A DNA stretch of 32,000 bases from Xylanibacter ruminicola 23 (GCF_000025925.1 NC_014033.1:3150001-3182000), one strand, 5' to 3'. Positions 2,345 through 31,794 are shown, counted from the first letter of the stretch. Notes: a model not told the origin generated them from the sequence alone. Numbers and translations are program-made.

Positions 2345-4408
2345 ATGAGCCACAGAACTATTAAACTACTGGCTTGTTTCTCACTGGTGGTGATGCTGGT
2401 GGTTGCATGCGGCGAACGGAAAGAAACAGGACTTGAAAAGAATACAGCCGACGGATTAGTCCTTGATGCGTATAAGCATAAGGACTATCCGTTGTTGTTG
2501 TCTTTAGCCGATAGCCTTGGTAAGATTGGTGCTATTTCCGAAGTTCAGTCGCACTATTGGAGTGGCTATGCCAGCGACCGCATGGGTAAGAAGCGCACAG
2601 CCGAGTATTACTGGAAGAAGGCCGAGAGCGAAGTAGAAAACTTTAATAATTCCGAGCAGGTAGATTATTACGCCAAGGCGGCCAGTCATCTGGCTAACCT
2701 GCTGAACCTGAAGGGCGACTACGACGGTTCGCTGAAAGAGGCCATCAATGCAGCCGAAAAACTCGAGGTGTTAGGTTGCGATACCACCACCGATTATGTA
2801 AACCTGCTGGTGTTTATCGGTTGCGGACAGGCCCGTTTGCCTGGCATGGAAGAAACTACTAAGAAATCGTTCGAACGCGCTTATAACAAGCATCTTGAGC
2901 GCATCAGCGCATCACCTACCGAATCTACTTACAAAGGTGCCATTGCAGGCATTGTAAATATGGCTTACTCGTGCAATGCCACCCATCAGTATCAGCAGGC
3001 CCTGTATTGGTGCGACCGCTATGAAGAGCTGGTACACAAATACGAGAGGCTATATTCTGCCGACGAGGACTATATCGACAAGCAGCTTGCCCGTTGTAGT
3101 ATCTATCGTGCCACAGCGCTTGTATCGTTAGGGCAATCGCAGGAGTCGTATCTGGCTTATCTCGACTTCAGAAACACCAAGTTCAGTAAGAGTCCTGAGG
3201 GTATCTACGATGCTGGCGAGTACCTGATTGAGGCCAAACAATGGAAAGATGCAGCCGTTTGTTTCCAGCGACTCGATGAGTTGGTAAACAAATATCGCAT
3301 GGAGTTTTCGATCGAGAATCTCGAGACCTATTATCTGAAGAAGTACGAGGCCAACCTCAAGGCAGGTCGCAAGGACTCGGTTTATGCTATCAGTACCTTT
3401 ATCTGCGACTCGCTGAGTGTAGCTATCGATCGTGCAAGAGCCGACAATGCAGCCGAACTGGCCACTATCTACAATACCGAGCAGAACGAAACCCGACTGG
3501 CCGAGAACAAGGCCAAGCTGATGCGCGAGCGTCAGATAGCCGCTGTTGTCACTATTATTCTGATTATCGGCTTCTTTATTGTTTATGCTCTTTACAAACA
3601 GAAGGCTGCCGCCAAGTTGCACAAGGCGCATAACGAACTGAAGGCGGCTTACGACCAGCTCGAGGAAACCACATCGGCCAAGGAGCGTATCGAGAGTGAG
3701 TTGCGTATCGCCCGCCACATTCAGGAGTCGATGGTGCCTAACGAGTTCCCACAGCGCTCCGATTTCGATCTCTATGCCTCGATGACAGCTGCCAAGGAGG
3801 TAGGAGGCGATTTGTACGACTATCTGATTATTGGCGATAACCTGTGCTTCTGCGTAGGCGACGTATCAGGTAAGGGAGTGCCCGCAGCGCTCTTCATGGC
3901 TCAGGTTATCAGGTTGTTCCGTGCTATGGTTAAGCGTAACTACACGCCAGCCAAGTTGGCTACCGAGCTGAATGCCGAACTGAGCGAGCATAACGACGAC
4001 GGCATGTTTATTACCATGTTTATCGGTATGGTGAACCTGCGTACCGGCAAGCTCGATTTCTGTAATGCAGGTCATAATCCCCCCATACTGGGCAATGGCA
4101 ACGAGAGCAGATTCCTGAAGATGGAACCCAATGCGCCTATCGGCCTTTGGGAAGGACTGAAATACGAGGGCGAGGTGATAGATGATATCCGTGGCCACCT
4201 GTTCTTTGTATATACCGATGGTTTGAACGAGGCCGAGAACACGAAACTTGAGCAGTTTGGCGACGAACAGGTGCTTAACGTAGTTAAAAGTGCCAGCCAG
4301 CTGAATCCACGAGATATGGTAGATACCATGAAGAACGAGGTGAATCGTCATCGCAACGGCGCCGATCCTAACGACGATCTCACCATGCTCTGCCTACATG
4401 TAGTATAG
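2345..4408 (+). CDS. Membrane sensor serine phosphatase, SpoIIE/PP2C family (RsbU/RsbP-like), with periplasmic TPR-like helical-repeat domain
   Basis: The ORF track starts at TTG 2333. ATG 2345 is preferred because it gives MSHRTIKLLACFSLVVMLVVAC, a signal peptide with a lipobox-like VVAC. About 370 aa of helical-repeat sequence follow, then one TM segment (IAAVVTIILIIGFFIVYALY), a coiled coil, and a PP2C domain with the motifs GGDLYDY, CVGDVSGKGVPAALFMA, YTDGLNEA and DPNDDLTMLCL. Confidence 0.85.
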   Translation: MSHRTIKLLACFSLVVMLVVACGERKETGLEKNTADGLVLDAYKHKDYPLLLSLADSLGKIGAISEVQSHYWSGYASDRMGKKRTAEYYWKKAESEVENFNNSEQVDYYAKAASHLANLLNLKGDYDGSLKEAINAAEKLEVLGCDTTTDYVNLLVFIGCGQARLPGMEETTKKSFERAYNKHLERISASPTESTYKGAIAGIVNMAYSCNATHQYQQALYWCDRYEELVHKYERLYSADEDYIDKQLARCSIYRATALVSLGQSQESYLAYLDFRNTKFSKSPEGIYDAGEYLIEAKQWKDAAVCFQRLDELVNKYRMEFSIENLETYYLKKYEANLKAGRKDSVYAISTFICDSLSVAIDRARADNAAELATIYNTEQNETRLAENKAKLMRERQIAAVVTIILIIGFFIVYALYKQKAAAKLHKAHNELKAAYDQLEETTSAKERIESELRIARHIQESMVPNEFPQRSDFDLYASMTAAKEVGGDLYDYLIIGDNLCFCVGDVSGKGVPAALFMAQVIRLFRAMVKRNYTPAKLATELNAELSEHNDDGMFITMFIGMVNLRTGKLDFCNAGHNPPILGNGNESRFLKMEPNAPIGLWEGLKYEGEVIDDIRGHLFFVYTDGLNEAENTKLEQFGDEQVLNVVKSASQLNPRDMVDTMKNEVNRHRNGADPNDDLTMLCLHVV

Positions 4409-4433
4409 ACTTTTTAAAAAGAGAATATTTGAT

Positions 4434-4979
4434 ATGATTAAGTGTAAACATCTTTGTATGATGCTGTTACTGGCATTATGCACTCTTACTGCTCAGGCTC
4501 AGGAGGCCGAGCTTATTCGTAATGGCGATTTTGAATTAACCCCCAGGGTTGAAAAAGGTGCTAATGCCACCACCGCTTGGGATAGCCGCAAGCCCTTAGT
4601 AGTGGTTCATGTTGATCCTGTTAGTACCGATAATCCTTGCTATGCCGTCATCTGCTGCGACACCATCTATAACCAGGGTTTTGATGGTATCCCTGTAGTC
4701 GAGGGTACCAAGTACGATTTCTCAGTATGCCTGCGCAATCTGCCTGCCTTGAAGGAAGAGGACCGTGTGGAAGGCTGCAAACTGCTGATTATCCAGCTGG
4801 TTGATGAGCAGCGCCAGCCCCTGGCCGAGGCTACCATCCGTGCCAAAGGCAACCAGTGGCAGCAGTACCACGCTGTGTTTACGGCTCATGGTAGCTGTGC
4901 CAAGGCCCAGTTGGCTATTGTGGGCGTTGGTTGCCAAAAGATAGCTATCGATAAGGTAAGTATGAAAAAACACCAGTAG
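4434..4979 (+). CDS. Secreted stand-alone CBM-like beta-sandwich protein, paralog of the N-terminal domain of the GH51 arabinofuranosidase at 9036..11051
   Basis: Signal peptide MIKCKHLCMMLLLALCTLTAQAQ. Three blocks align by eye with the GH51 N-terminus: AELIRNGDFELTP vs AELIQNGAFEFSP, NQGFDGIPVVEGTKYDFSVCLRN vs NDGFDGISVKAGEKYDFSAFMRN, and CAKAQLAIVGVGCQKIAIDKVSM vs CKQAALQILVLTKGDMDIDVVSLM. It starts 25 nt after the phosphatase stop. Confidence 0.75.
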   Translation: MIKCKHLCMMLLLALCTLTAQAQEAELIRNGDFELTPRVEKGANATTAWDSRKPLVVVHVDPVSTDNPCYAVICCDTIYNQGFDGIPVVEGTKYDFSVCLRNLPALKEEDRVEGCKLLIIQLVDEQRQPLAEATIRAKGNQWQQYHAVFTAHGSCAKAQLAIVGVGCQKIAIDKVSMKKHQ

Positions 4980-4982
4980 AGT

Positions 4983-6668: not shown

Positions 6669-6685
6669 AAAACAAACAACAAAAC

Positions 6686-9035: not shown

Positions 9036-11051
9036 TTACAGCTGGTACTGCAGCATAACCATTGAGTAGGGGGCCAGGTCGAGGGTGAACTTCTTCTGGG
9101 CCTTGATCTGCTCTTTCTTGGGAGCGATGGGCTGGGCGTCGAAGTTGTTCTCGTCGTTAGGCTGACCTGCGAGGGTGGTCTTGGTGGCCAGCTTCTTGAT
9201 GCCAAAGCGGCTCAGGTTGATGTTGGCCTTCTTGGCATCGGCACTGGCGTTAACCAGTTTCACGAACAGCTGGCGGGTCTTGGTGTTGAGAATCACGCTC
9301 TGACCGTAGTGCACACCCTCCATAGGCTGGATGGCATCGGCAGCATCGCCCTCAAACTTCACGCAGTCGCCATAGTAGTAGTTACCGCTCGACTGTCCGA
9401 ACAGCTGCTGAACATAGTAGCTGCAGGTGAGGAATGGGCGCTCGTTGTCGTAGTAGATGAGGTCGGGATTCCACTGGGTGCCGTTCTTGCGGGCAAACAG
9501 GGGAGCGTAAGATGTCATGGCTACTACATCACCATTGCGCTCTACGTGCAACAGATACAGACCTTCGGCCAGGGCGTCGATGAGTTTCTTGTCCTTAGCG
9601 GCATACTCGCCCAGATAGACCTTGGTCTTGCGGTCGCGGGGATAGCTGTCGTACTGGCGCTTGTTCAGGAAGTAGGTGTTGGGCTCGTAGTAGTGCTCGT
9701 CGAGGATAGGCATATTGAGTTCCTCGGCCAGCTTCCAACCGTTCTGGTAGTCGCCGTTATCGGCATGCGAGCCAGGACCGGCTGTACCAACAATCACGAT
9801 TTCAGGATGAGCCTTGGTAACACGCTCGTAGATATACTTGAAGCGCTCGCAGAACTCGGGCGAGATGCGCTCTTCGTTGCCAATACCAAGATATTTGAGG
9901 TTGAAGGGCTTGGGATGACCTGCCTCGGCACGCATCTTGGCCCACTTGTTGGTGGCGGGATCGCCATTGGCCCACTCAATCAGGTCGATGCACTCGTCAA
10001 CCCACTCGTCCATCTCGCTCATGGGAACTACGTCCTGAGCCTGGCCTTTCATGCCCCAACCACCGTTGGCGCCCTGACAGCTGACGCCGGCAGGCAGGAT
10101 GGGCAGGGGCTCCATACCCAGATCCTCGCAGAACTGGAAGTACTCGAAATAGCCCAGACCTACACTCTGGTGATAACCCCAGGTGTTCTTGAGTTGGCGG
10201 CGTGTTTCCTTAGGTCCGATAGTGGTCTTCCAGCGATAGGTGTTCCAGAATCCGTCGCCACCACCGTGAACCACGCAACCACCAGGGAAGCGCATGAACT
10301 TAGGATGCAGGTCGGCCAGTGCCTGAGCCAGATCCTTACGCAGGCCGTGGCCCTTATATGTATCTTCGGGCATAAGTGATACCACATCGATATCCATATC
10401 ACCCTTGGTAAGTACCAGAATCTGCAGGGCAGCCTGCTTGCAGTCGGCATTAGGTGTGAGCACAGCCTCGAACTTCTTCCAATCGCCGTTGCTTACGTCG
10501 AAGGTTGTTTCGGCCAGCAGTTTGGGATCCTTAGGTGGCCAGCCCTTTACAGGCTCAATCAGCACCACGCGTACCTGCTTGGCATCGCCTTTTACGTTGC
10601 GCATAAAGGCCGAGAAATCGTACTTCTCGCCAGCCTTAACTGAGATGCCGTCGAAACCGTCGTTCTGAATGCCGAAGCCAGTCCAACCTGTGTAGTCGTA
10701 ATACTGGTTGGCGCGCTCGCAGTGCAGGCGCATATAGGTGGCGTTGTTGGCATGAACGGGGTTGTCCATGCGGGGCTGGATATAGCCGGTGGAGTGACCA
10801 GGACGGGTGATGCGCCAGGCGGTGCCGGGGCCCCATCCGTCGCGCTCAACGGGTGAGAACTCGAAGGCGCCGTTCTGAATAAGCTCGGCATAGAGTCCGC
10901 CATCGGCAGAGTTGTTAATGTCTTCAAAGAAGATACCAATGAGCTCGTTGCTGATGGCTTTGCCGCCAGCAGGGGCTTTCACTGGTTTCTGGGCGTTAAG
11001 ACCCATGGTGGCTGCTGCAAGGGCAGCACAGAGAATTGAACGTTTGTACAT
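9036..11051 (-). CDS. Alpha-L-arabinofuranosidase, glycoside hydrolase family 51, with N-terminal CBM-like domain
   Basis: 671 aa with signal peptide MYKRSILCAALAAATMGLNAQ. N-terminal IGIFFEDINNSADGGLYAELIQNGAFEF and catalytic-core YLGIGNEE are as I remember for GH51 enzymes. Confidence 0.85.
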   Translation of the reverse strand: MYKRSILCAALAAATMGLNAQKPVKAPAGGKAISNELIGIFFEDINNSADGGLYAELIQNGAFEFSPVERDGWGPGTAWRITRPGHSTGYIQPRMDNPVHANNATYMRLHCERANQYYDYTGWTGFGIQNDGFDGISVKAGEKYDFSAFMRNVKGDAKQVRVVLIEPVKGWPPKDPKLLAETTFDVSNGDWKKFEAVLTPNADCKQAALQILVLTKGDMDIDVVSLMPEDTYKGHGLRKDLAQALADLHPKFMRFPGGCVVHGGGDGFWNTYRWKTTIGPKETRRQLKNTWGYHQSVGLGYFEYFQFCEDLGMEPLPILPAGVSCQGANGGWGMKGQAQDVVPMSEMDEWVDECIDLIEWANGDPATNKWAKMRAEAGHPKPFNLKYLGIGNEERISPEFCERFKYIYERVTKAHPEIVIVGTAGPGSHADNGDYQNGWKLAEELNMPILDEHYYEPNTYFLNKRQYDSYPRDRKTKVYLGEYAAKDKKLIDALAEGLYLLHVERNGDVVAMTSYAPLFARKNGTQWNPDLIYYDNERPFLTCSYYVQQLFGQSSGNYYYGDCVKFEGDAADAIQPMEGVHYGQSVILNTKTRQLFVKLVNASADAKKANINLSRFGIKKLATKTTLAGQPNDENNFDAQPIAPKKEQIKAQKKFTLDLAPYSMVMLQYQL

Positions 11052-11062
11052 AGTTGATAATA

Positions 11063-13474
11063 TTATTGATTGTTACTAATTAGTCTCACTTCGTAAATCT
11101 CGCCAACCTGCTTGTGGGGCTTGGCCACGAATTTGATGCGCACCTGCTTTTTGCCCTTGAGCAGCTGGGCTGGGATAGGATACTCCTCGAACTTGAACTG
11201 TGAGGTGCGATACTTGCCGACGAGGTTGACGGTGGTTACCAGCGTGTCATCTACAAAGATATCGAACTCAGGGTTCTTCCAATCGCCTACACCCCAGTAT
11301 TTCAGGCGCAGACTCAGGTCGGTCTTGCCGCCTGTCTGCATCAGGTAGCTGAAATAGTGACCATCGCGGGCATCGCGGAAGAATACATCGTTGGTGTTGC
11401 CCACGGTCGATTGGTCAGTCTCCATAAAGTGGTCGCTCTCAGGCTGTTGCTCGCCTGGCTGCACCTTGTCGGTGGTGCGGGCCTCGAGTGCCTGGCGCTC
11501 CTGCTCCTGCTTGGCCAGATTGGCCAGATAGTCCTTGTAGCTATCCTCAGAGAGCGCCAACCAGTACATCATGTAACGGGCATCGTGCAGCTCGAAGAAA
11601 GGCATCAGCTCGCCCTCAATCTTATTTACCATCTTGGTGCTGAGGTTGAAGTGCAGGGGCTTGCCTGCTATGGGTTGCAGCTGGTTGGCAATGCTCTCCA
11701 CATCCTTATTAACCAGGATAGGGGCCTGGTCGATAGGCAGCTTTTTGCCTGTGGCCAACTGGCCGAATCGGCTGTCGTCGGCTATCAGGTGTGCCAAATC
11801 CTCAGTACCCGTCTTCATAGCCAGCATGATAGGGCCGTGCATCAGGGCAATATACTGTGGCAGGTTGGGCAGATACTTCACGCTGTTGTACATGGGGAAT
11901 TGGATATCAATCACATCGCCCTTTTTCCACTGGCGATTGATGGCTACATAGCTTGATGGACCAGTGACGATGCTCACAGGCTTGCCATTCACCTTAACGC
12001 TGAACTGGCCTGGCTTTACCCAGCCGGGGTAGCGCACCATGATGGGTGTTGGCTGTTTGGTGTTGGATGATTGCGTGATGGTGATACGGCTGTTCTCGCT
12101 ATAAGGGAAACTGGTTTCCTGGCGCAGGGTGATGCCTTTGGCTTTCCAGTTAAGCTCTGAGGCCACAAACAGGTTCACAAACAGGGCATCGCCGCTGTGA
12201 GTATAGATAAACTGGTTGTACTTGCCATGATTCTCCATGCCTGTGCCCACGCAGCACCACATGGCCTCGTTGGGAGCCGAATAGTTGCGGTAGTGGCGCG
12301 GACGGGCTGAAGTGAAATATACGTAGCCGCCATGCTCAGGGTGCTGGGTTGAGAGTATATGATTGAAGGTAGCCAGCTCGAAGAAATCGGCATAGCGGGC
12401 TTCGGGGTTGCGACGATGCAGATCCTCGGTGAGCTTCAGCATATTGTTGGTGTTACAGCTCTCAGGACCGTCGATATCCTGCACAAAGTCCTGACAAGCC
12501 TCGCGACTGGGGAAGTGCTCACGACGACTGTTGCCGCCAAAGGCCAGTGTGCGCTCGCCTGTTACGATATCCCAGAAGTAGGCACCTGCAGTGTGGTAAG
12601 CCTCGTCGCCACTCAGCTCGGCTATACGCTCAAAACCTATCACCTTGGGCACCTGGGTGTTGGCATGCATGTTGTCGAGCACGTCGCGGCGCTGCATCAG
12701 CGGGTTCAGCAGGCGGCGATGCGAGAATCGACGGGCCACATCCAGATATTTCTGCTCGCCAGTGATGGCGTAGGCATCGGCCAGCACCTCGTTCATGCCA
12801 CCATGCTCGGTATCCAGCGCGCGCTCCATCTGAGCATCGGTGAGATTGGCTGTCAGGTCGATGGCCCAGTCGCAGAAGCCCAGAAAGAGCTTCTTGGCCT
12901 GCTCGTTGCCACAGTAAACCCACGCGTCGCGCAGGCCGGCATACATCTTGTGTATATTATAGAAAGGAACCCACGCGCCAAAGTAGGGGCCGAAGTTACC
13001 TTTCTTAAAGTTGCTCCAGATACGGTCGCTGCCGGGCACACCGCCCACATAGCCACGGCCCCAGTCGGGGTGGTTCTTGGCATTGGCATCGGCACAGGCC
13101 TGCAGCTCGCTAATCCAGTATTCCATGCGCTTGCGGCACTCTTGGCTGCCAGTAGCAGCATTGATGGCCATCGCAGTCAGATAGTGGCCGCCCACGTGTC
13201 CGTCCAATCCGTCCCAGTTAGGGTACGACTTGCCTTTCGGTGTTAGTCCGGCCTCTTTCAGATAAGGCGCCAGCAGGCGGTCGTTGTCGTACTTCAGCAG
13301 CGTCTCGATGTTCAAGTCGCGCGCATGCTTCAGCGGACCGTTTAGCAGGGTTACATCCCCTAAGGGAAACTCGTTGGCATACAGCCTGTCTTGGGCTTGA
13401 CTACTGCCAGCTGCCAATGTCAGCAGCACGGATAGTAGCAGGCCTCGTGAATGGTTGTTAAATAGGTACATCAT
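11063..13474 (-). CDS. Glycoside hydrolase family 127 (DUF1680; beta-L-arabinofuranosidase-like)
   Basis: 803 aa with a signal peptide. The N-terminal region has the GDVTLLNGPLKHARD...DRLLAPYLKEAGL pattern, and WCCVGTGMENH is the Cys-rich metal/catalytic motif typical of HypBA1-type GH127. It lies 11 nt upstream of GH51. Confidence 0.85.
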   Translation of the reverse strand: MMYLFNNHSRGLLLSVLLTLAAGSSQAQDRLYANEFPLGDVTLLNGPLKHARDLNIETLLKYDNDRLLAPYLKEAGLTPKGKSYPNWDGLDGHVGGHYLTAMAINAATGSQECRKRMEYWISELQACADANAKNHPDWGRGYVGGVPGSDRIWSNFKKGNFGPYFGAWVPFYNIHKMYAGLRDAWVYCGNEQAKKLFLGFCDWAIDLTANLTDAQMERALDTEHGGMNEVLADAYAITGEQKYLDVARRFSHRRLLNPLMQRRDVLDNMHANTQVPKVIGFERIAELSGDEAYHTAGAYFWDIVTGERTLAFGGNSRREHFPSREACQDFVQDIDGPESCNTNNMLKLTEDLHRRNPEARYADFFELATFNHILSTQHPEHGGYVYFTSARPRHYRNYSAPNEAMWCCVGTGMENHGKYNQFIYTHSGDALFVNLFVASELNWKAKGITLRQETSFPYSENSRITITQSSNTKQPTPIMVRYPGWVKPGQFSVKVNGKPVSIVTGPSSYVAINRQWKKGDVIDIQFPMYNSVKYLPNLPQYIALMHGPIMLAMKTGTEDLAHLIADDSRFGQLATGKKLPIDQAPILVNKDVESIANQLQPIAGKPLHFNLSTKMVNKIEGELMPFFELHDARYMMYWLALSEDSYKDYLANLAKQEQERQALEARTTDKVQPGEQQPESDHFMETDQSTVGNTNDVFFRDARDGHYFSYLMQTGGKTDLSLRLKYWGVGDWKNPEFDIFVDDTLVTTVNLVGKYRTSQFKFEEYPIPAQLLKGKKQVRIKFVAKPHKQVGEIYEVRLISNNQ

Positions 13475-13486
13475 TTGTTATAGTTG

Positions 13487-14371
13487 TTATTGATTGTTCT
13501 TGATGATCTGGTGCACATCGTCGATGCTGTGGGCAAAGGGGCCTGTGTGTTCCAGCTTCAGCGTGCACATGGCGGCTGCAAACTGACCGCTTTCTATATA
13601 GCTCATCCCCCTGGCACGGGCATACAGATAGCCAGCGCTGTAGGTGTCGCCGCAACCTGTGGCATCAACTAACTTGGTTGGTGGGTAGGCAGGAGTTTCG
13701 TAGAACTTGCCCTCGGTATAGATCACCGATCCGCCACCACCTAAGGTGATAATCACTTCGCGTACACCCCAGTCGTAAATCTGTTGGGCGGCCTCGTAAG
13801 GGTCGGTCATGTTCGTCAGCGTCTGGCACTCCCACTCGTTTACCTTCAGGATAGCTGTGTGCTTCAGCAGTCGCAGCTTGTCGGTCCACTCGCAGGCGCG
13901 CACCTCCTCGCCAACCACCTCGCGCAGATAGCCCTGCACATCGATGCTCACATCGCCCTTGGTGGCCAGATATTCTACTATTTCGGGTGCAAAGTCGTCG
14001 GCCAGCAGTGTGCCTAAATGGAACACGCGGGCCTGCTCGTCGTTCAGTTCGTTAAGTGTGAATGGAGCCGACTTGGCCAGTACCCGCTGTGTGCGGTTGT
14101 CCATGTTGGCACCATACTTATTCTCGAAAAACACGTTGGTATCGCTCTCAAAGGCCGTTACCCGCACGCCAGCCTGGCGCAGTTTCTCAACTTCGGGCAT
14201 CACCTCGCTGCTAACCGAGGTGATAAGGTGGAAATTAACGTCATGGGGCAGTGCCTGGATGGCCCACGCCATATAGTAGGCCGAACCGCCTGCGCAGTGC
14301 GTGGTTACGGGCGGAACCTGAGTGATGATCCTGTCACGAGTGATATGTCCAATACAGCAAATATCTGTCAT
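13487..14371 (-). CDS. PfkB-family carbohydrate kinase (ribokinase-like fold)
   Basis: 294 aa. It has the C-terminal PfkB signature DATGCGDTYSAGYLYA and N-terminal CIGHITRD...AGGSAYY. It is the first gene of the kinase-GH127-GH51 operon, with a 12-nt gap to GH127. Confidence 0.8.
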   Translation of the reverse strand: MTDICCIGHITRDRIITQVPPVTTHCAGGSAYYMAWAIQALPHDVNFHLITSVSSEVMPEVEKLRQAGVRVTAFESDTNVFFENKYGANMDNRTQRVLAKSAPFTLNELNDEQARVFHLGTLLADDFAPEIVEYLATKGDVSIDVQGYLREVVGEEVRACEWTDKLRLLKHTAILKVNEWECQTLTNMTDPYEAAQQIYDWGVREVIITLGGGGSVIYTEGKFYETPAYPPTKLVDATGCGDTYSAGYLYARARGMSYIESGQFAAAMCTLKLEHTGPFAHSIDDVHQIIKNNQ

Positions 14372-14411
14372 TTTGTCGACTTTTGATTGAATATTATCTT
14401 TATTTCGGTTG

Positions 14412-14419
14412 CAAAGATA
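14412..14419 (-). promoter_or_regulatory. -7 box (TATCTTTG on minus strand) for the PfkB-GH127-GH51 operon
   Basis: Plus-strand caaagata is the reverse complement of TATCTTTG. It lies 41 nt upstream of the start at 14371. Confidence 0.5.
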
Positions 14420-14460
14420 ACATTTTTTTCTAAATATTTTGTTTTATTCGAGAAATATAC

Positions 14461-14468
14461 TATCTTTG
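14461..14468 (+). promoter_or_regulatory. -7 box (TATCTTTG) for GH28-SusC-SusD
   Basis: Exact consensus 33 nt upstream of ATG 14501. It is the mirror image of the minus-strand box. Confidence 0.5.
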
Positions 14469-14500
14469 CAACGAATTATTCGTTACTACTAAGATAATTA

Positions 14501-15823: not shown

Positions 15824-15859
15824 AACTTTTAATATTCTTTTTATACTAACTTTTAATTA

Positions 15860-18886: not shown

Positions 18887-18917
18887 AGTTATTATCATTT
18901 AATAAGATTCAAGTATT

Positions 18918-20540
18918 ATGAAACTAAATAAAGTATTTCTTGCAGCTGGCATGTTTGCCGTAGCACTCACCAGCTGTACAGATTTGGATGTAACTCCAAG
19001 TTCTCAATACACAGAAGACCCCAGTAAGAATTCTGGAGTTGACCCGATGATTATGGTAGAGGCAAAAATGGCAGATTTGTATTTCCACCTGTCAGGTACA
19101 TTTGGTCGCCGATATATGGAAGCACAGTGCCTTGCTTCGGATGAGTTTACGTCTCTGGCTTTTGATGGAGGCTACTATGATGGAGGTACCTATGCTCACC
19201 AGGCTCTTCACTGCAGTTCGGCTACCGATGCCTCACTCGACTGGTATTCGGATGTAACTGCTGGTATTACAAAGGCCAACACTATTCTTGAGGAACTAGG
19301 TAGTAGTGCTTCTGTCCAGATGACAGCACCTGCTCGTGCTATTCGTGCTTACTTTACATGGATATTGATGGATAGCTTTGGCGATACACCTATTCTTGAA
19401 AAGGTGCCTGCTGAGGGTGAGGTGGTAGCTCGTTCTCCACGCAAGGAAGTTGCTGAGTGGATTGAGAGTGAACTCACAGAGATTATTCCTTACCTCACAG
19501 AGGATGTAACAGAGAATACCTATGGTAAGCCAACCAAGTGGATGTCACAGGCTCTGCTTGCTAAGCTTTATATCAACTGGCCAGTCTATACAGCCGAGTC
19601 TGTTGATCAGTATGATGCTGCTACTGCTGCAAATCCAAAACTCGATGCATGTATCGAGCTTTGTGATGACATCATCAATAGCGGTAAGTTCAATTTGGGC
19701 TCTGTTGACTATCTGCATAAGTTCTCATACGACAATGGCTCTCAGATAGAAGACTTCATCTATGCAATGCCTTATGACGCTATCAACCGTCAGGGTATGC
19801 AGTGGGGACGTCCTCGCTCATTCAAGCAGTTGAAAGGCATGTTGCCAACTTATTATGGATTTGCTGATAAGTTTACCCAGTCGTTTGGTGGTAATATGGT
19901 CGTTACACCTGAGTTCGCTAAACTCTTTAGCCTCGATGGCGATATCCGCAATCTCAGCATTCTGCGTGGCGACGTCTTTATCCGTGATCCGAAGACACTG
20001 CGTCCTACCTCTGAGCCATTTATGTATAAAGACAAGCAGGTTCATTTCACAGAGGACATTACGCTGATTAAGCAAGACAACACTATCGACGTGGGTAATG
20101 ATGATAACGCTATCCAGCAGGGCTGTCACTCTATCAAGTGGTTCATTAATCCTGCCGACTATAACAATGGTCGTAACCAGTCGAACGATGTGCCCATCTT
20201 CCGTTATGCTGATATCCTGCTGATGAAGGCTGAGGCACTCACACGCATTGGCAAGACTGGTGCCAAGGACCTCTTCAATCAGATCCGTAAGTATGCTGGT
20301 GCACCAGAGATCGCAGCAGAACCTACACTCGATGAGATCTATCAGGAGCGTGGCCGTGAGTTCTTTGATGAGAACTGGCGCCGTAACGATATGATTCGCT
20401 TCGGTCACTTCGAGGACGAGTTCTTCCCTCACTACAAGAACTTCCCCGATGCTGATTTCGACAAGCGTCATCGTATCTTCCCCATTGAGCAGGAGATGCT
20501 CGATCTGAACCCAGGTTGGGAGCAGAACCCTGGTTATTAA
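18918..20540 (+). CDS. SusD/RagB-family glycan-binding lipoprotein
   Basis: 540 aa. Lipoprotein signal MKLNKVFLAAGMFAVALTSC and the C-terminal SusD-like block YQERGREFFDENWRRNDMIRFG. It immediately follows SusC. Confidence 0.9.
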   Translation: MKLNKVFLAAGMFAVALTSCTDLDVTPSSQYTEDPSKNSGVDPMIMVEAKMADLYFHLSGTFGRRYMEAQCLASDEFTSLAFDGGYYDGGTYAHQALHCSSATDASLDWYSDVTAGITKANTILEELGSSASVQMTAPARAIRAYFTWILMDSFGDTPILEKVPAEGEVVARSPRKEVAEWIESELTEIIPYLTEDVTENTYGKPTKWMSQALLAKLYINWPVYTAESVDQYDAATAANPKLDACIELCDDIINSGKFNLGSVDYLHKFSYDNGSQIEDFIYAMPYDAINRQGMQWGRPRSFKQLKGMLPTYYGFADKFTQSFGGNMVVTPEFAKLFSLDGDIRNLSILRGDVFIRDPKTLRPTSEPFMYKDKQVHFTEDITLIKQDNTIDVGNDDNAIQQGCHSIKWFINPADYNNGRNQSNDVPIFRYADILLMKAEALTRIGKTGAKDLFNQIRKYAGAPEIAAEPTLDEIYQERGREFFDENWRRNDMIRFGHFEDEFFPHYKNFPDADFDKRHRIFPIEQEMLDLNPGWEQNPGY

Positions 20541-20666: not shown

Positions 20667-21626
20667 GTGAAACCAAAGGTAAAATTATTTATTACTGCTA
20701 TAACGCTTGCTGTTTGCTTGCCGTTGCTGGCGCAGAAGAAATACACTGGAAAGTTCGTCTTTACGCCACAGTGGACTGCCCACGCGCAGTTTGCTGGTTA
20801 TTATGTGGCCCAGGAAAAAGGCTTCTATAAGGCCGAAGGTCTGGATGTGGATATAGTACACCCATCGGTATCCGAAACGGCTATGCACCGCATTCAGGAG
20901 GCTGAGAGTCATGCCACCACGCTGCCACTCTGTTTGGCGATGGAGATTATGGACAAAGGTGTGCCTTTGGTGAACATCCTGCAAACATCGATGAACAACT
21001 CTACGGTTATCGTATCGCGCCGTGGTAAGAATCCGCTCACGCAGAAGGGTGCCCGTGTGGGTATCTGGCATGCCGGATTCGGACAGGTGGCCATCTGCAT
21101 GAGTCGCAAGGAACATCTGAATTACCAGTGGATACAGTTTACATCGAACTTCGACTTGTTTATAAAAGGTGCTATCGACGCTACGCTGGCTATGAGCTAC
21201 AACGAGTACTACCAGCTGATGCAGATGGGCTTTACATTTACCAAGGATAATGTTTATCGCTTTAGCGACCACGGTTACAATATTCAGGACGATGGTCTGT
21301 ACATGCGCCGCGACTACTACGAGACCCATAAGGCCAAGGCAGAGAAGTTTGCCCGTGCCAGCCGTAAGGGTTGGGAATGGGCCAGCGAGCATCCTGAGGA
21401 AACGCTGGATATTGTGATGAAATATGTACAGCAGAACCACGTGACAACCAATCGCACGCTGCAGCGCCTGATGCTGAAAGAGATATTGCGCCTGCAGGTG
21501 GACCGCGACTCGAAGAAACGCGAGTTCCGTTTGCGCCCCGATATGGTGAAGAAGGCCAATATGCTGATGCGCTCGAATGGGATGCTGAAGCGCGACATTA
21601 CTTACCAAGAATTATTAGATCGTTAA
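20667..21626 (+). CDS. Periplasmic substrate-binding protein, NMT1/THI5 (SsuA/TauA-like) fold, no cognate ABC permease or ATPase nearby
   Basis: 319 aa. GTG start, with no in-frame ATG that would keep the signal peptide MKPKVKLFITAITLAVCLPLLAQ. QWTAHAQFAGYYVAQEKGFYKAEGLDVDIV is typical of this SBP family. The 307-aa antisense ORF is rejected. Confidence 0.7.
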   Translation: MKPKVKLFITAITLAVCLPLLAQKKYTGKFVFTPQWTAHAQFAGYYVAQEKGFYKAEGLDVDIVHPSVSETAMHRIQEAESHATTLPLCLAMEIMDKGVPLVNILQTSMNNSTVIVSRRGKNPLTQKGARVGIWHAGFGQVAICMSRKEHLNYQWIQFTSNFDLFIKGAIDATLAMSYNEYYQLMQMGFTFTKDNVYRFSDHGYNIQDDGLYMRRDYYETHKAKAEKFARASRKGWEWASEHPEETLDIVMKYVQQNHVTTNRTLQRLMLKEILRLQVDRDSKKREFRLRPDMVKKANMLMRSNGMLKRDITYQELLDR

Positions 21627-21632: not shown

Positions 21633-23555
21633 ATGAAGAATCCAAGAGACTATATCCGCACTTCCCTGTCACGTCGCCTTAGTATTATCATTGTACTGAT
21701 GGCCTCGATATTTTTTCTGGGATCACTTGGATTCTTGTTTGTAGAGTCGCGTAAGGCTGTGCGCGAGGAGGCGCTGAACGGTGCGGCCCAGGTGCTGGAT
21801 AACACGGTGCAGCGTGTAAACGTGCTGATGCAGCGTGTAGAGATAGCATCCGACAACTTTATGTGGTTGCCATTGCGACATCTTGATGTGGCCGACTCGA
21901 TGTTTGTGTATTCGCGTCGTATCCTGACCTGCAACCCCGATCTGAACGGTTGCTCGATAGCTTTCGAACCTAACTATTTCCCCGATAAGGGCCATTATTT
22001 CTCGGCCTATACCCTTAACGACAATGGCAAATTCGACACCACTCAGGAAGGTAATCCCTCTTATGATTATCATTATATGGATTGGTATCAGGCTCCCAAA
22101 CTGCTGGATGAGCCAGTGTGGATTGAGCCGTTTGCAGATTTCAACCCTGAGGATGTCTATGCCGAAGAGATTATTGCATCGTACTGCCGCCCAATGAAGG
22201 ATTCGAAGGGCCGCTATGTGGGCACATTCTCTACTGATATCTCGATGGAGTGGATATCGAAAACCATATCCGAAGTAAAGCCCTATCCCAACTCGTACTG
22301 CATTATGATTGGTCAGAGTGGTACTTTCTTTGTACATCCCGATACCACCAAACTGCTGCGCGAGAGCATTTTTACGCCTACACTGGAGCATCCTGATACA
22401 GCACTTACCAACCTGGGGCATGCCATGCAGCGTGGCGAAACGGGTGTGCGCAAACTGGTGTTCGAGGGCAAGGAGAGCTACGTGTTCTACAAGCCACTTG
22501 GCATTACGGGCTGGAGCGTGGCTATGGTTTGTCCTGAGAGCGATATTTTTGGCGGTTACATGCGTCTGTATAAGATAGTAATCTTTATCGTTATCGTTGG
22601 CTTGATATTGATGCGTCTGGCATTCAGTCGTATCATCAAGCGTGAGCTGAAGCCGCTGAACACGCTGGCACAGCAGGCCGAGACGATTGCATCGGGACAG
22701 TTCGACAAAACGCTGCCACGCGATAACCGTATCGACGAGATTGGTAAGCTCACGCATTCGTTCAGCGACATGCAGCACTCGTTGGTTAACTACATCAGCG
22801 AGCTGAAGCGCACCACAGCTGTTAAAGCCTCTATCGAGAGCGAGCTGAAGGTGGCCAGCGACATACAGATGGGTATGATTCCACGTGTGTTCCCACCATT
22901 CCCTGAGCGCCAGGATATCGACCTGTATGCACTGATGACTCCAGCCAAGGTGGTTGGTGGCGATCTGTACGACTACTTCCTGCAGAACGAACGCCTTTAC
23001 TTCTGTGTGGGCGACGTATCGGGTAAGGGTATTCCCGCTGCGATGTTTATGGCGATTACGCGCGACCTATTCCGCATTATTGCCCAGCAGAACCGTTCGC
23101 CATGGGAGATTGCTACGATGATGAACAACTTCCTGGTAAAGGACAACGACCAGAGCATGTTTGTAACCATGTTTATTGGTATGGTTGACCTGCCTAAGGG
23201 CCGATTGGAGTACTGTAACTGCGGTCATAATGTGCCTATACTGGATGGTAAGTTCCTGGAGATGGGCAGCACAAACCAGCCATTGGGTTTGTGGGAGTGC
23301 AAGGCCTTTGAGGGCGAGGTGATAGAGGATATTCGCAACCGACAGCTGCTGGTTTATACCGACGGACTGAATGAGGCCGAGAACGACCGTCAGGACCGTT
23401 TGGGCGACGAACGTCTGCTGGAGGCTATGCAGGGTACTGAGCAGCTTTCATCCGAGGAGGTTATACACCGTCTGCAGGTAGTGGTTAACAACCATCGTGC
23501 AGGTGCAGAACCTAACGACGACCTGACGCTGCTGTGCCTCTCGATCCGTAAATAA
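21633..23555 (+). CDS. Membrane sensor serine phosphatase: Cache-like periplasmic domain - TM - HAMP - SpoIIE/PP2C
   Basis: 640 aa. TM1 is LSIIIVLMASIFFLGSLGFLFV, followed by a ~270-aa periplasmic domain with Cache-like sequence and TM2 IVIFIVIVGLILMRLAF. A HAMP-like linker (PLNTLAQQAETIASGQFD...IDEIGKLTHSFSDMQ) follows. The PP2C motifs are GGDLYDY, CVGDVSGKGIPAAMFMA, YTDGLNEA and EPNDDLTLLCL. By eye about half the positions are identical to the catalytic domain of 2345..4408. There is a 6-nt gap after the SBP gene. Confidence 0.85.
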   Translation: MKNPRDYIRTSLSRRLSIIIVLMASIFFLGSLGFLFVESRKAVREEALNGAAQVLDNTVQRVNVLMQRVEIASDNFMWLPLRHLDVADSMFVYSRRILTCNPDLNGCSIAFEPNYFPDKGHYFSAYTLNDNGKFDTTQEGNPSYDYHYMDWYQAPKLLDEPVWIEPFADFNPEDVYAEEIIASYCRPMKDSKGRYVGTFSTDISMEWISKTISEVKPYPNSYCIMIGQSGTFFVHPDTTKLLRESIFTPTLEHPDTALTNLGHAMQRGETGVRKLVFEGKESYVFYKPLGITGWSVAMVCPESDIFGGYMRLYKIVIFIVIVGLILMRLAFSRIIKRELKPLNTLAQQAETIASGQFDKTLPRDNRIDEIGKLTHSFSDMQHSLVNYISELKRTTAVKASIESELKVASDIQMGMIPRVFPPFPERQDIDLYALMTPAKVVGGDLYDYFLQNERLYFCVGDVSGKGIPAAMFMAITRDLFRIIAQQNRSPWEIATMMNNFLVKDNDQSMFVTMFIGMVDLPKGRLEYCNCGHNVPILDGKFLEMGSTNQPLGLWECKAFEGEVIEDIRNRQLLVYTDGLNEAENDRQDRLGDERLLEAMQGTEQLSSEEVIHRLQVVVNNHRAGAEPNDDLTLLCLSIRK

Positions 23556-28173: not shown

Positions 28174-28668
28174 TTATTCGTATAAGGCGGGCGTATCCGT
28201 GGCACTTACCTTAGTGGTGTCGGCCATATTCTCGGCCTGCATAGTGCCGAGGGTGTTAACGGAGTCGGCCTGATGCTGCTGGTGGAACTTAGCATATGCA
28301 TCCTTCGGGTCGTCCCATCCGCGGTCCCAAGGGGCCTGTGCGGCGTTACCCAGTGTAAGGATGATGGCTACCACGGCTGCAGCACGGAACAGCGGCATGA
28401 GGCGTGTGGTAAGAGTTACCATCTTGGCCTTTGGCGCTTCGGTGTTCTCGCCTACCATTTCGAGTATTCGGGCATCAAAGTCATCGCCCAGTTCAGGCTT
28501 CTCCTGCTCGAGAGTAAACAGCGCTTTGTACTGCATCAGACTGGCTGGTACATCCTCCTGACTGAAGAATGTGCGCAGAATTGACTCTTCCTGTAGTGTG
28601 GTTTCACACTGCCAGTAGCGCTCCAGTAACTGTTCGATATACTTATAATCCATATTTCTCGGTTTCAA
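28174..28668 (-). CDS. Small single-pass membrane protein downstream of ECF sigma (putative anti-sigma factor)
   Basis: 164 aa. The N-terminal YIEQLLERYWQCETTLQEESILRTFF resembles short proteins I recall following ECF sigma genes in Bacteroidales. It has one TM segment (LMPLFRAAAVVAIILTLGNAA). It overlaps the sigma gene by 26 nt, or by 11 nt if the start is the ATG at 28653. Confidence 0.6.
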   Translation of the reverse strand: MKPRNMDYKYIEQLLERYWQCETTLQEESILRTFFSQEDVPASLMQYKALFTLEQEKPELGDDFDARILEMVGENTEAPKAKMVTLTTRLMPLFRAAAVVAIILTLGNAAQAPWDRGWDDPKDAYAKFHQQHQADSVNTLGTMQAENMADTTKVSATDTPALYE

Positions 28669-29161
28669 TATATTTTTGTCGGATGGCTTGGCGAGCGCGG
28701 AAGATGTTTACCTTTACCTGCTCTTCGCTGACAGCCATAATCGACGCTATTTCTTTATAACTCTTGCCTTCGAATTCGCGCAACTGCATAGCGCTTCGCT
28801 GTTTCTCAGGCAGTTCATTAATAAGTTGGCGTATCAGCTCGATGCGATCGCGCTGCATAGCCTGCTCTTCAGGGTTCGAGGCGTAGCTCTGGTCGGCTTT
28901 GTCGTGGTCGCCTTCTTCCAGACTCTGGTTCTGGTTTTCCAAGTGTCGCATTCTGTCGAGTGCCAGGTTGCGGCAGATGGTAAGGCAAAAGGCTTCAATC
29001 GATTCGATGTCGTCCCATGCCTCGCGGCGATTCCACACCTTTATCATCGTGTCCTGTACTACATCCTCTGCCTCTGCAGGGTTGAGGGTGATGCGGAGGG
29101 CAAGCCTGTAGAGCTCGTTCTTCAGCGGCAAGATGTCAGTTTTAAAACTTATCTTTTTCAT
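28643..29161 (-). CDS. ECF-type RNA polymerase sigma-70 family factor
   Basis: 172 aa. It has region 2 (AEDVVQDTMIKVWNR) and a region 4 HTH (QRSAMQLREFEGKSYKEIASIMAVSEEQVKVNIFRARQAIR). Confidence 0.85.
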   Translation of the reverse strand: MKKISFKTDILPLKNELYRLALRITLNPAEAEDVVQDTMIKVWNRREAWDDIESIEAFCLTICRNLALDRMRHLENQNQSLEEGDHDKADQSYASNPEEQAMQRDRIELIRQLINELPEKQRSAMQLREFEGKSYKEIASIMAVSEEQVKVNIFRARQAIRQKYIETEKYGL

Positions 29162-30016: not shown

Positions 30017-31066
30017 TTACTGCTTTTGTCCGATAGCCTTGTATTGGCGTATCATGGCATCGGCCAGTATAGCGTTACTCTCGTTGGCACCGTACAGGGT
30101 GTCGTAAATCATCTTCACATCATCGCGACCGCCGCCATGCTTCAAGGCGTAAACCACGCACAGGTTCTGCAGACCAACCGACTCAGACAGGATATCAAGG
30201 TCGGTAACAGCCAACTGCGACAGGGCCAGCTGATAGGCTGTGTCGCTCAAATCGTCGACCATAGCTTGTACATCGCCTAACGATTCCATGCCAAAATGCT
30301 CCAGAACGCGCAGGAAAGGCATCAGCGAGGCGGGGAACAGCTCGGCCTGGTTAACAGCAGCAATACGCTGGTTAAGACGCTCGAATGGGTGCAATTCAAG
30401 ATAGCTGCGGAACGAGTCGGTAGAGAGTGTTACCTCGCTTAGGTTGCCTGATTTTACCAGCGTTTGTATCTGTCGGCGGTATTCGGTCATAGTGGTGCGC
30501 AGACGGCTGAACTCATCGTCGGCCAACTCTAACATACCGGCCAGGCGACTGAACTGTCGGCGATACTGTGGGGGCAGTTTAACGGCACCCTTGTAGCCGA
30601 TGTCGTGCTCGATGGCCGACCACGTGTGCTGCAGTGCTGTACGTATCTGTATCTCGAAGGGAATGCTACCCTCGTGCAGCTGGCAGATGTAGTGCAGCGA
30701 GTTATAGCCAAAGCTGTTGAAATCGTGCAGCTTGCGCTTATCAACAGAGTTGCTCCAGTCGATATCGAACAACTGACTGACAATGGCTGCTACCTTATCC
30801 ACATCATCGGTATAGAAGGTAACAATGCGCAGGCCAATCAGGTCGGTAATGTCGCTTAGCGAGTGATATTTCTCGCCTTTGCGCTCTAACTTACCAGCCA
30901 ACGACTCAACACCCTTGATGCGGTGCTCGATGCTGTTAAGTTCGATGCCCTGCTGCTGCATGGTGGTCTGTAACAGCTCGAAAACCTTGTTGTCAAGCTG
31001 TATCAGTTGTGGCCGCAGTTCGATGAACTCCTGCAGCAACGCTTCGCAATGTGGCGACAGGCGCAT
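30017..31066 (-). CDS. RelA/SpoT-domain nucleotide pyrophosphokinase (small alarmone synthetase-like) with ~150-aa C-terminal extension; no hydrolase domain
   Basis: 349 aa. All synthetase motifs are present: HRIKGVESLAGKLERKG, DLIGLRIV, GYNSLHY and FEIQIRTALQHTWSAIEHDIGYK. Its ATG (31064-31066) overlaps the STAS stop (31066-31068) by 1 nt. Confidence 0.85.
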   Translation of the reverse strand: MRLSPHCEALLQEFIELRPQLIQLDNKVFELLQTTMQQQGIELNSIEHRIKGVESLAGKLERKGEKYHSLSDITDLIGLRIVTFYTDDVDKVAAIVSQLFDIDWSNSVDKRKLHDFNSFGYNSLHYICQLHEGSIPFEIQIRTALQHTWSAIEHDIGYKGAVKLPPQYRRQFSRLAGMLELADDEFSRLRTTMTEYRRQIQTLVKSGNLSEVTLSTDSFRSYLELHPFERLNQRIAAVNQAELFPASLMPFLRVLEHFGMESLGDVQAMVDDLSDTAYQLALSQLAVTDLDILSESVGLQNLCVVYALKHGGGRDDVKMIYDTLYGANESNAILADAMIRQYKAIGQKQ

Positions 31067-31368
31067 TAGATAAACTCAAAAAGATTAATAAAACCAGTCA
31101 TGGCAAACACCTGGCGCAGATCTTCGTTCATGTTGCGCAGATAAACATGGCTGCCTTTGGGCTTTGCGGCCTTGAGCAGACCAAGGAACAGGCGCAGACC
31201 ACTTGATGAGATATACTCGAGTGCTGTGCAATCAAGAATGATATCGTGACCAGAGCATTCGTAAAGTGGAGCCATGCTCTTTTCAACCTCTGCTGATGCA
31301 GCCGTATCCAAACGACCTTCGAAGTACATCACGAAATTCTTCTCTTCTTCTTTGAATGTTGTTTTCAT
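31066..31368 (-). CDS. STAS-domain anti-sigma-factor antagonist (SpoIIAA/RsbV-like)
   Basis: 100 aa. It has the conserved phosphorylatable-serine motif in LEYISSSGLRLFLGLL and the typical C-terminal VFAMTGFINLFEF. Confidence 0.85.
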   Translation of the reverse strand: MKTTFKEEEKNFVMYFEGRLDTAASAEVEKSMAPLYECSGHDIILDCTALEYISSSGLRLFLGLLKAAKPKGSHVYLRNMNEDLRQVFAMTGFINLFEFI

Positions 31369-31374
31369 AACTAT

Positions 31375-31794
31375 TTATTTTTTAGTGATAATTTTGCTGA
31401 GTGTGAGTAGATTCTTATTATCTACACGCTCGTAGTTAATGGTATCCATTATTTGTCGTATCAGGTGAATGCCTAATCCGCCGATACTACGCTGTTCGGC
31501 TGAAAGCGTAGTATCGACCTCGGCTTTGACCGTTGGGTCGAAGGGGGTACCGCTGTCGCTGATGACAAACTTAAGATGCTCATCGTTTATCTGGGCATCG
31601 ATATCCACATCGCCCTTACCATTGGGATAGGCATAGTTCATGACGTTAACCACAGCCTCTTCGATGGCCAGGTTAATCTTCATCGTTGTGCTCATGTCGA
31701 GGCCTGCAGTCTCGCACACCTCATCTACAAATGCATTGAGCTGGGGCACTTCCTGCACATCGTTAGGCAGTGTAAGATGATTTTGGTAACGCAC
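31375..31794 (-). CDS. RsbW/SpoIIAB-like serine-protein kinase (HATPase_c anti-sigma regulatory factor)
   Basis: 139 aa with a GTG start; no in-frame ATG would keep the N-terminal helix. It has the N-box IEEAVVNVMNYAY and G-boxes ISDSGTPFDP and IGGLGIHLIRQIMD. There is a 6-nt gap to the STAS gene. Confidence 0.8.
   Translation of the reverse strand: MRYQNHLTLPNDVQEVPQLNAFVDEVCETAGLDMSTTMKINLAIEEAVVNVMNYAYPNGKGDVDIDAQINDEHLKFVISDSGTPFDPTVKAEVDTTLSAEQRSIGGLGIHLIRQIMDTINYERVDNKNLLTLSKIITKK

Follow-up and report, generated by a model that had tools for sequence, protein, structure and literature searches.

A 32,000-nucleotide stretch of the Xylanibacter ruminicola 23 genome (GCF_000025925.1 NC_014033.1:3150001-3182000; this whole stretch is referred to here as the window) contains adjoining genes for an RsbW-like serine kinase, a STAS protein and a Rel protein, together with two genes for membrane phosphatases of the PP2C/SpoIIE type (SpoIIE#1 and SpoIIE#2). 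The analysis described below suggests that the kinase, STAS and Rel proteins are likely to constitute one unit of the partner-switch type whose output is a small alarmone synthetase (SAS), that the sensor phosphatase formerly built into this unit has been lost, and that SpoIIE#1 and SpoIIE#2 are separate from it, the whole being best explained if the two enzymes, whose genes lie on either side of a polysaccharide utilization locus (PUL) in this lineage, form a catalytic clade of their own and are independent orphan sensor phosphatases. The part of this explanation in which we place high confidence is that kinase, STAS and Rel are one functional module. A preliminary description of the window had joined its five signaling genes and the Rel gene in a single multi-input system. 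All of these genes are present where they were placed, and the kinase/STAS/Rel unit with a PP2C phosphatase as its natural input stands, while the assignment of the two window phosphatases as those inputs is unsupported by the comparisons made.

The genes in the window were annotated by Pfam and NCBIfam scans of all large open reading frames (ORFs). The kinase gene (31375..31794, minus strand) has a GTG start and encodes a 139-residue protein that matches Pfam HATPase_c_2 (E=7.3e-28; 97.6 bits versus a cut-off of 27.4), in which the residues of the N, G1 and G2 boxes are visible as EEAVVNVMNYA, DSGTPFD and GGLGIH. The protein is also similar to the NCBIfam RsbW model, with a score under the cut-off. 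The end of the kinase gene is separated by 6 nt from the STAS gene (31066..31368, minus strand), which encodes a single-domain protein of 100 residues that matches Pfam STAS (1.1e-17) and scores 66.5 bits against the TIGR00377 model for anti-sigma-factor antagonists, over the cut-off of 53.45. The STAS protein is the predicted phospho-acceptor and transducer of the unit, with the phospho-serine expected in the motif YISSSGLR (Ser54/55); the pattern Y-I-S-S-[SA]-G-L-R shows little or no variation among 52 Rel-linked STAS proteins. The locus holds two features of partner switching, a STAS antagonist with a conserved phosphorylatable serine and an adjoining gene for a GHKL serine kinase of the RsbW/SpoIIAB type. 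A six-frame census of the window with profile hidden Markov models (HMMs) yielded one STAS, one RsbW-like, two PP2C and one Rel domain, in agreement with the single STAS protein and single kinase noted previously, and the same census detected no small alarmone hydrolase (SAH), no APH-like phosphotransferase and no further STAS, RsbW, PP2C or Rel domain.

The Rel gene (30017..31066, minus strand) begins with an ATG that overlaps the stop codon of the STAS gene (TAATG) and encodes a protein of 349 residues that matches Pfam RelA_SpoT (1.3e-22; 80.7 bits versus a cut-off of 27). The protein is made up of an N-terminal SAS domain (approximately residues 1-205) and a C-terminal all-helical domain (approximately residues 206-349). 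The synthetase motif residues R49, K51, K59, D75, G78, R80, Y121, S123, E138, Q140, H154, Y158 and K159 are invariant in a 20-sequence alignment of the family, which comprises 1,096 representatives at E<1e-30. The closest sequence matches in the PDB are RelQ and RelP, and the AlphaFold2 (AF2) model (mean pLDDT confidence 90.9) has its best fold matches in Bacillus subtilis SAS1 and Staphylococcus aureus RelP (TM-score ~0.75). No HD hydrolase, TGS, ACT or other additional Pfam domain was found in the Pfam scan of the protein, so that Rel, with its synthetase domain and motifs, has the makeup of a SAS. It falls outside the RelQ/YjbM equivalog NF053588 GTPPhKinYjbM (63 bits, cut-off 320). The C-terminal domain of approximately 145 residues is confidently modeled and is absent from the whole-protein fold matches, which were filled by matches to the N-terminal synthetase, the domain not having been searched alone. 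Rel is presumed to be the output enzyme of the kinase-STAS unit. The HD_4 hydrolase that is encoded near Rel in relatives fits a hydrolyzable 3'-pyrophosphate product, with which a guanine nucleotide, an adenine nucleotide or a tRNA acceptor would be equally compatible.

The conservation of this arrangement was probed in 80 Rel loci from 80 species-level genomes that were collected via the Rel family alignment and whose neighboring genes were annotated by profile searches and Pfam. These relatives are rumen or gut Bacteroidales with Rel proteins 49-93% identical to that of the window. In 60 of the 80 loci, one or more partner-switch components are encoded on the Rel strand at a distance of no more than 6 kb. 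By the same count, a fusion of PP2C and RsbW accompanied by STAS is found in 42/80 (33 of the 54 loci that have full flanks), STAS alone in 8/80, stand-alone RsbW plus STAS with no PP2C in 7/80, a fusion lacking STAS in 2/80, separate PP2C, RsbW and STAS genes in 1/80, and none of these in 20/80. A C-terminal HATPase_c_2 domain is carried by 45 of the 48 PP2C genes in the loci of the 80 relatives, and the architecture of the fusion according to Pfam is dCache(-HAMP)-SpoIIE-HATPase_c_2. The operons recur in two orders, [NMT1]>fusion>STAS>Rel and Rel>SAH>APH>fusion>STAS. A total of 29 out of 76 loci have an HD_4-type SAH within 5 kb of Rel, often following Rel at a distance of 2-4 nt, and 26 of the same 76 have an APH-like phosphotransferase in that range. 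The module of sensor-phosphatase/kinase, STAS, synthetase and hydrolase is real and conserved, and the co-occurrence across these species bears out the RsbW-STAS-Rel unit while leaving an input from SpoIIE#1 and SpoIIE#2 into that unit unsupported. No sigma factor gene is present in the conserved operon across the 80 loci, leaving no operon-encoded sigma factor for the kinase to sequester. The link of STAS to Rel appears to be specific to Bacteroidales, as essentially no STAS, RsbW, PP2C or SAH neighbors were found in 80 metagenome loci of distant Rel members, of which 25 exceed 8 kb and which were searched with Bacteroidales-derived profile HMMs that divergent domains may escape.

Two gene types in these loci may represent further components of the module, and neither occurs in the window. 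Some of the APH-like genes carry a second STAS domain as a fusion (STAS~APH; L020 8012-9223, L025 and L052), and a gene of the tyrosine-phosphatase family Y_phosphatase3 is found in 11 Rel loci, at times right after STAS (e.g., L081 12385-13191 and L084 12508-13314, cluster 7).

Comparison with the three closest relatives, Prevotella sp. P6B1 (L011), Prevotella sp. MA2016 (L012) and an X. ruminicola metagenome-assembled genome (L013), reveals how the window came to possess a stand-alone kinase. The four share the order speA ... STAS-Rel-argB-ECF-antisigma-CAAX-ribF-tRNA-Met, where ECF denotes an extracytoplasmic function sigma factor, and the distance between speA and the kinase domain is 3.3 kb in the relatives versus ~50 bp in the window genome. 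By blastn, positions 5946-9246 of the L013 locus (3.3 kb) stand opposite these ~50 bp; they comprise a PS-decarboxylase-like gene and the portion of a fusion gene that specifies dCache-HAMP-PP2C. The window kinase is 83% identical to residues 669-807 of this 809-residue fusion, and its GTG start corresponds to a valine codon within the L013 gene (...SKQNLD-VRYQNH...), while the STAS proteins of the two genomes are 97% identical. Immediately upstream of the kinase gene lies a non-coding remnant of a PP2C 3' end (31795..31822, minus strand; 24-28 nt aligned, with an in-frame TAA), in which the window reads CAATACACTAAATAACAATTCGACGTG and L013 reads CAATACAGTAAACAAAATCTTGATGTG, the latter encoding ...QYSKQNLDV. 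Judging from this junction alignment, the remnant is the right edge of a deletion of ~3.3 kb between speA and the kinase domain, and the window kinase is, by the same comparison, the C-terminal domain that remains of an ancestral gene for a dCache-HAMP-PP2C-RsbW fusion. The truncated order speA-RsbW(139 aa)-STAS-Rel also occurs in a metagenome contig of independent origin (L002). What has been deleted here is the cognate fused PP2C that 42 of the 80 relatives carry, and the PP2C genes that the window retains are located 7.5 and 27 kb away and belong to another clade.

Analogy with RsbW/RsbV and SiaB/SiaC/SiaD suggests a mechanism for the unit. The kinase would phosphorylate the conserved STAS serine, a PP2C phosphatase would take the phosphate off again, and the phosphorylation state of STAS would decide whether STAS binds Rel and hence the synthesis of a 3'-pyrophosphorylated nucleotide. 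In the ancestral form, one membrane sensor of the type dCache[-HAMP]-PP2C-RsbW would set STAS phosphorylation according to a periplasmic ligand, and in relatives the SAH encoded beside Rel would degrade the product. The window genome possesses a kinase-only module with no hydrolase gene in the window, in which STAS would be either permanently phosphorylated or reset by a phosphatase encoded elsewhere. The direction of regulation, the contact of Rel with STAS as opposed to the kinase, and the product of Rel are modeled on the known systems. A classical variant, with Rel held by the kinase domain until dephosphorylated STAS frees it, is possible as well.

The ECF sigma factor gene (28643..29161) was considered as a target of the RsbW-like kinase and rejected, as this gene has its own transmembrane (TM) anti-sigma-like gene and is syntenic in L011-L013 only. 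The sigma factor is of the PG0214/GFO_1088 type (NCBIfam 201 bits versus a cut-off of 130), and its gene overlaps the gene for a 164-residue single-TM protein that follows it (together 28174-29161, minus strand). The latter protein has no family match and is probably an anti-sigma factor.

Several observations weigh against an intact unit with Rel as its output. Rel can work independently of the module, because partner-switch genes are missing from the vicinity of 20 of the 80 Rel homologues and of the distant family members found in other environments. In approximately 20 loci, those with the order in which Rel, SAH and APH precede the fusion, STAS lies beside the fusion and not beside Rel, so adjacency is no proof of STAS-Rel contact. 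In the window itself, there is no recognizable promoter in the 73-nt gap after speA and the kinase begins with GTG; expression of the kinase gene might be weak, or the gene might be in decay. In a rival explanation, kinase-STAS-Rel is a decaying remnant here, with the kinase unexpressed or the pathway locked off, and the SpoIIE genes serve unrelated pathways such as PUL-linked regulation via an unlinked STAS protein or other phosphoprotein. Consistent with this explanation, the deletion presumably took the promoter along with sensor and phosphatase, the kinase is left with a GTG start and without a SAH partner, the nonsynonymous divergence (dN) of the kinase (0.092) exceeds that of Rel (0.039) and STAS (0.013), and in P6B1 and X. 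ruminicola both SpoIIE genes have stayed syntenic with the PUL. We nevertheless regard decay as improbable. The three ORFs are intact and retain their catalytic and phospho-site motifs, and their ratios of nonsynonymous to synonymous divergence (dN/dS) are 0.015-0.064; the value for the kinase versus L013, 0.064, indicates purifying selection overall and merges inseparably the periods before and after the deletion. Moreover, the arrangement is present in independent assemblies, and seven other species have natural RsbW-STAS-Rel operons in which the kinase stands alone.

A different role for Rel must also be weighed, namely that of a growth arrester similar to the toxic SASs (toxSAS), with STAS as a phosphorylation-controlled neutralizer and, in relatives, SAH as a second, enzymatic antitoxin, the whole forming a conditional growth-arrest or defense switch in place of a pathway for metabolic signaling. 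The TAATG overlap of the STAS and Rel genes is in the style of toxin-antitoxin pairs, SAH follows Rel at 2-4 nt in many relatives and SAH antitoxins of toxSAS are known (PMC7229694), CapRel is among the Foldseek matches of Rel, weakly, and the three genes form an insert-like cassette between speA and argB. However, the best sequence and fold matches of Rel are to the housekeeping enzymes RelQ and RelP and not to CapRel or FaRel, the window keeps Rel without any SAH, the Rel loci have no mobile-element or defense-island context, and STAS is a signaling domain and not a known antitoxin. We judge this role for Rel unlikely and favor the partner-switch-type unit.

SpoIIE#1 (2333/2345..4408, plus strand; Pfam SpoIIE E=2.6e-47) consists of an N-terminal signal/lipobox helix, a periplasmic helical region of approximately 370 residues with a TPR-fold domain of approximately 310, a single TM helix (approximately residues 403-423, ~3539-3601), a coiled-coil linker and the PP2C domain (3836-4402). 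The sensor had been called TPR-like from inspection. At the level of fold this is correct, as the AlphaFold model (pLDDT 83) contains approximately 16 paired helices with Foldseek matches to LGN and consensus-TPR superhelices, and TPR_1/2/12 are detected by Pfam in homologues at 45-48% identity; the window protein itself has no Pfam TPR match. The best Foldseek match of the PP2C domain is SiaA (6k4e, TM-score 0.86). The X. ruminicola genome L093 keeps the block SASA-MFS-SpoIIE#1-178aa-PRK-GH51-GH127-PfkB-GH28-SusC. No STAS or RsbW gene lies within 10 kb in any of four SpoIIE#1 homologue contexts. SpoIIE#1 is best regarded as an orphan sensor phosphatase, and a trans-acting input to the unit from this enzyme is doubtful. 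The sole hint tying TPR-type phosphatases to Rel is provided by two relatives that encode sensor-PP2C proteins resembling the SpoIIE#1 N-terminus: L036 (5592-8477, minus strand), with a protein of 961 residues and a weak RsbW-like tail, 1.5 kb upstream of Rel and divergent from it, in a locus where no STAS gene was detected, and L032 (19463-21055), 8.4 kb downstream of Rel.

SpoIIE#2 (21633..23555, plus strand) matches Pfam SpoIIE (5.7e-39), dCache_1, MCP-like_PDC_1 and HAMP, confirming the Cache plus HAMP sensor attributed to it earlier. The protein comprises two TM segments that bracket the dCache domain (~21918-22526), followed by HAMP (22632-22787), a coiled-coil linker and PP2C (22986-23546). 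The gene for an NMT1/THI5-like periplasmic binding protein (20667..21626, plus strand; Pfam NMT1 1.1e-29) ends 6 nt upstream, and its product is a probable ligand-binding co-sensor of SpoIIE#2. In P6B1, L092, L097, L098 and L099, and also in more than 12 Rel operons, the gene immediately before the dCache phosphatase is an NMT1 gene, and the window NMT1 protein is 63-66% identical to those of the Rel operons. Furthermore, the sensors of the NMT1-linked fusions in Rel operons share 54-63% identity with the sensor half of SpoIIE#2, whose catalytic half shows 40-43% identity to the fused PP2Cs and 70-77% to unfused orthologues. SpoIIE#2 is, on these comparisons, a mosaic with a sensor like those of the Rel-linked fusions and a catalytic domain like that of the unfused orthologues. 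Because the sensor and NMT1 protein resemble those of the Rel-operon fusions, the same signal probably drives STAS-Rel elsewhere.

The unfused orthologues of SpoIIE#2 provide additional information on its partners. In P6B1, the orthologue (75% identical) lies at the same PUL end, with NMT1, ~20 kb from that strain's own intact fusion-STAS-Rel operon. Three contigs (L092, L097 and L098) encode orthologues that are 67% identical overall and 70% identical in the catalytic domain, within an operon of the order small peptides, RsbW, STAS, HlyD-like, C39-ABC exporter, second ABC protein, NMT1, SpoIIE#2, HlyD and OEP. The STAS protein of this operon shares 32-36% identity, and its RsbW protein 39-42%, with the counterpart in the window. 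As these orthologues share operons with a stand-alone RsbW and STAS pair, the SpoIIE#2 clade would appear to act on separately encoded STAS proteins. SpoIIE#2 with NMT1 is a possible trans-acting input to the window unit, more plausible than SpoIIE#1, and we advance it tentatively. The operon itself (around positions 3100-14300 of the contigs), which begins with several ORFs of 36-85 residues and includes a 278-residue HlyD-like protein, looks like a partner-switch-regulated system for peptide or bacteriocin export. It was also considered that SpoIIE#2 could be the N-terminal half of the ancestral fusion, split off by inversion. This model was rejected, as the catalytic domain is just 40-43% identical to fused PP2Cs, P6B1 holds both the fusion and the unfused orthologue, and the PP2C-end remnant directly upstream of the kinase points to a deletion in place.

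Whether the two phosphatases feed the unit was central to the preliminary description, which had both SpoIIE#1 and SpoIIE#2 dephosphorylate the single STAS protein, so that two periplasmic signals converge on Rel in the manner of RsbU and RsbP. The two genes were confirmed by Pfam, and the features ascribed to them are largely borne out: the catalytic domains are paralogous with approximately half of their positions identical (131/253, 52%, E=2e-85), and the sensors, outside the catalytic regions and the preceding coiled-coil linker, produce no significant alignment. Several arguments favor convergence. With the cognate fused phosphatase deleted, the kinase-only module requires one that acts in trans, and for that reason such a phosphatase is an attractive proposal; RsbW, STAS and Rel are likewise found without a linked PP2C in seven other species; the SpoIIE#2 sensor and NMT1 are of the same type as drives STAS-Rel in other species, and the STAS partners of the SpoIIE#2 clade are encoded as separate proteins; the two window catalytic domains are mutually closest, which makes a shared substrate conceivable; and all genes of the model lie within 29 kb. 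Against these arguments, a tree of PP2C domains places SpoIIE#1 and SpoIIE#2, as mutual nearest neighbors, outside all Rel-linked fused domains, to which they are 39-44% identical, compared with 52% to each other. The STAS proteins paired with SpoIIE#2 orthologues are only distantly related to the window STAS, and the SpoIIE#1 homologues in their four contexts are never near STAS, RsbW or Rel. P6B1 keeps SpoIIE#2 and X. ruminicola keeps SpoIIE#1, while relatives of the group also carry an intact fusion-STAS-Rel operon; the SpoIIE genes therefore have a role that is independent of the loss of the cognate phosphatase. The proximity of the genes is inherited synteny, common to P6B1 and X. ruminicola, and co-localization within 32 kb is consequently not independent evidence. 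Finally, PPM phosphatases are usually highly substrate-specific, and paralogues can show 400- to 4000-fold specificity for their own STAS protein (PMC11418112). On balance, convergence of both enzymes on this STAS protein has a low probability. We assign a similarly small chance to a takeover, in which, following loss of the built-in sensor phosphatase, the PUL-flanking orphan phosphatases of the TPR and NMT1/dCache types became inputs to the Rel-gating STAS; if true, alarmone synthesis would be coupled at the post-translational level, via several inputs, to the sensing of nutrients or glycans in the periplasm.

Between the two phosphatases lies the glycan locus around which the preliminary description had arranged the circuit, a PUL with GH51, GH127, PfkB, GH28, SusC and SusD (9036..20540, Pfam). 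Between SpoIIE#1 and the PUL lie genes for a secreted protein of 181 residues with a weak CBM_4_9-like match (4434-4979) and, following it, a 561-residue uridine-kinase/PRK-family protein whose N-terminal region resembles the ThrRS N-terminus (TGS-like; 4983-6668). In L022 a homologue of the latter is the immediate upstream neighbor of Rel, and in L023 one is found ~2 kb downstream of Rel. The interval between the uridine-kinase-like gene and GH51 is occupied by a VapE-like/DUF5906/DUF3874 gene and a DUF6078 gene (7169-8969); these look like a small inserted element, because in X. ruminicola L093 GH51 directly follows the uridine-kinase-like gene. The same DUF6078 and VapE pair adjoins tandem SpoIIE#2-like genes in L099. 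Rfam and tRNA scans of the window found a tRNA-Met alone (26078-26152, minus strand). The synteny with L011-L013 stops exactly at the 3' end of this tRNA, and to its left (Peptidase_S58, His_Phos_2, SpoIIE#2 and PUL) the arrangement differs from that in L011-L013, so that the tRNA-Met marks a variable junction. P6B1 has ~14 kb of extra genes (GH3, esterases, MgtC and helicase) between SpoIIE#2 and the tRNA-Met point.

The unit proposed here can be compared with several known systems. In the sigma-B network of B. subtilis, the PP2C phosphatases RsbU and RsbP carry different sensors and converge on the STAS protein RsbV, which is the partner of the GHKL serine kinase RsbW. The PP2C, the STAS protein with a conserved phospho-serine and the GHKL serine kinase are common to both systems. 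In contrast, the conserved operon described here has no sigma factor and its output is an enzyme, and convergence of two phosphatases, as in Bacillus, is here a possibility of low probability. Rv1364c of Mycobacterium tuberculosis (PDB 3ke6), which is among the top fold matches of the SpoIIE#1 model, resembles the Bacteroidales fusions in that an RsbU-type PP2C and an RsbW-type kinase reside in one polypeptide. It differs in containing PAS and STAS domains in the same chain, in being cytoplasmic and in acting on a sigma factor and not on Rel, and the window gene additionally lacks the PP2C half. With RelQ, RelP and the toxSAS enzymes encoded with SAH (PMC3153485, PMC7229694), the window Rel shares a single synthetase domain, all motifs of the RelA/SpoT homologues (RSH), the RelQ/RelP fold and, in relatives, an adjoining SAH. 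The extra C-terminal helical domain of ~145 residues sets the window Rel apart from these enzymes.

Known regulation of SASs is mainly transcriptional or allosteric, and SASs are not known to be regulated via a phospho-protein partner. Full-text literature searches, a STAS review and two RSH surveys yielded no description of partner-switch control of a SAS, and the surveys (PMC3153485, PMC7229694) make no mention of a link between SASs and genes for STAS proteins, kinases or phosphatases. The closest parallel is SiaABCD of Pseudomonas aeruginosa (PMC8457831, PMC7647112), in which the membrane HAMP-PP2C protein SiaA and the RsbW-like kinase SiaB set the phosphorylation of SiaC, which binds and activates SiaD, a nucleotide-second-messenger synthase of the same operon, with no sigma factor involved; for the window unit, the corresponding steps are suggested by its genes and by analogy. 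The two systems differ in that the output here is a RelA/SpoT-type pyrophosphokinase and SiaD is a diguanylate cyclase, that the substrate here is a canonical STAS protein with a predicted serine site and SiaC is phosphorylated on threonine, and that kinase and phosphatase are fused in one polypeptide in most relatives of the window. The SiaA model NF038263 gives 80.3 bits for SpoIIE#2 and 34.8 bits for SpoIIE#1 versus a cut-off of 700, indicating that these are not orthologues of SiaA and that the resemblance is one of fold and logic. We infer that the module represents non-sigma partner switching of the SiaABCD type, with a SAS output as the new element. If so, it would provide a post-translational, ligand-gated route to alarmone synthesis, encoded in an operon of fused sensor PP2C-RsbW, STAS, synthetase and hydrolase that recurs in dozens of rumen Bacteroidales species. 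The window genome is a natural phosphatase-deleted variant, suited to asking whether an orphan SpoIIE phosphatase cross-talks with a non-cognate STAS protein. More broadly, SASs would constitute a new class of output enzyme for partner switching, beside sigma factors, diguanylate cyclases and glycosyltransferases.

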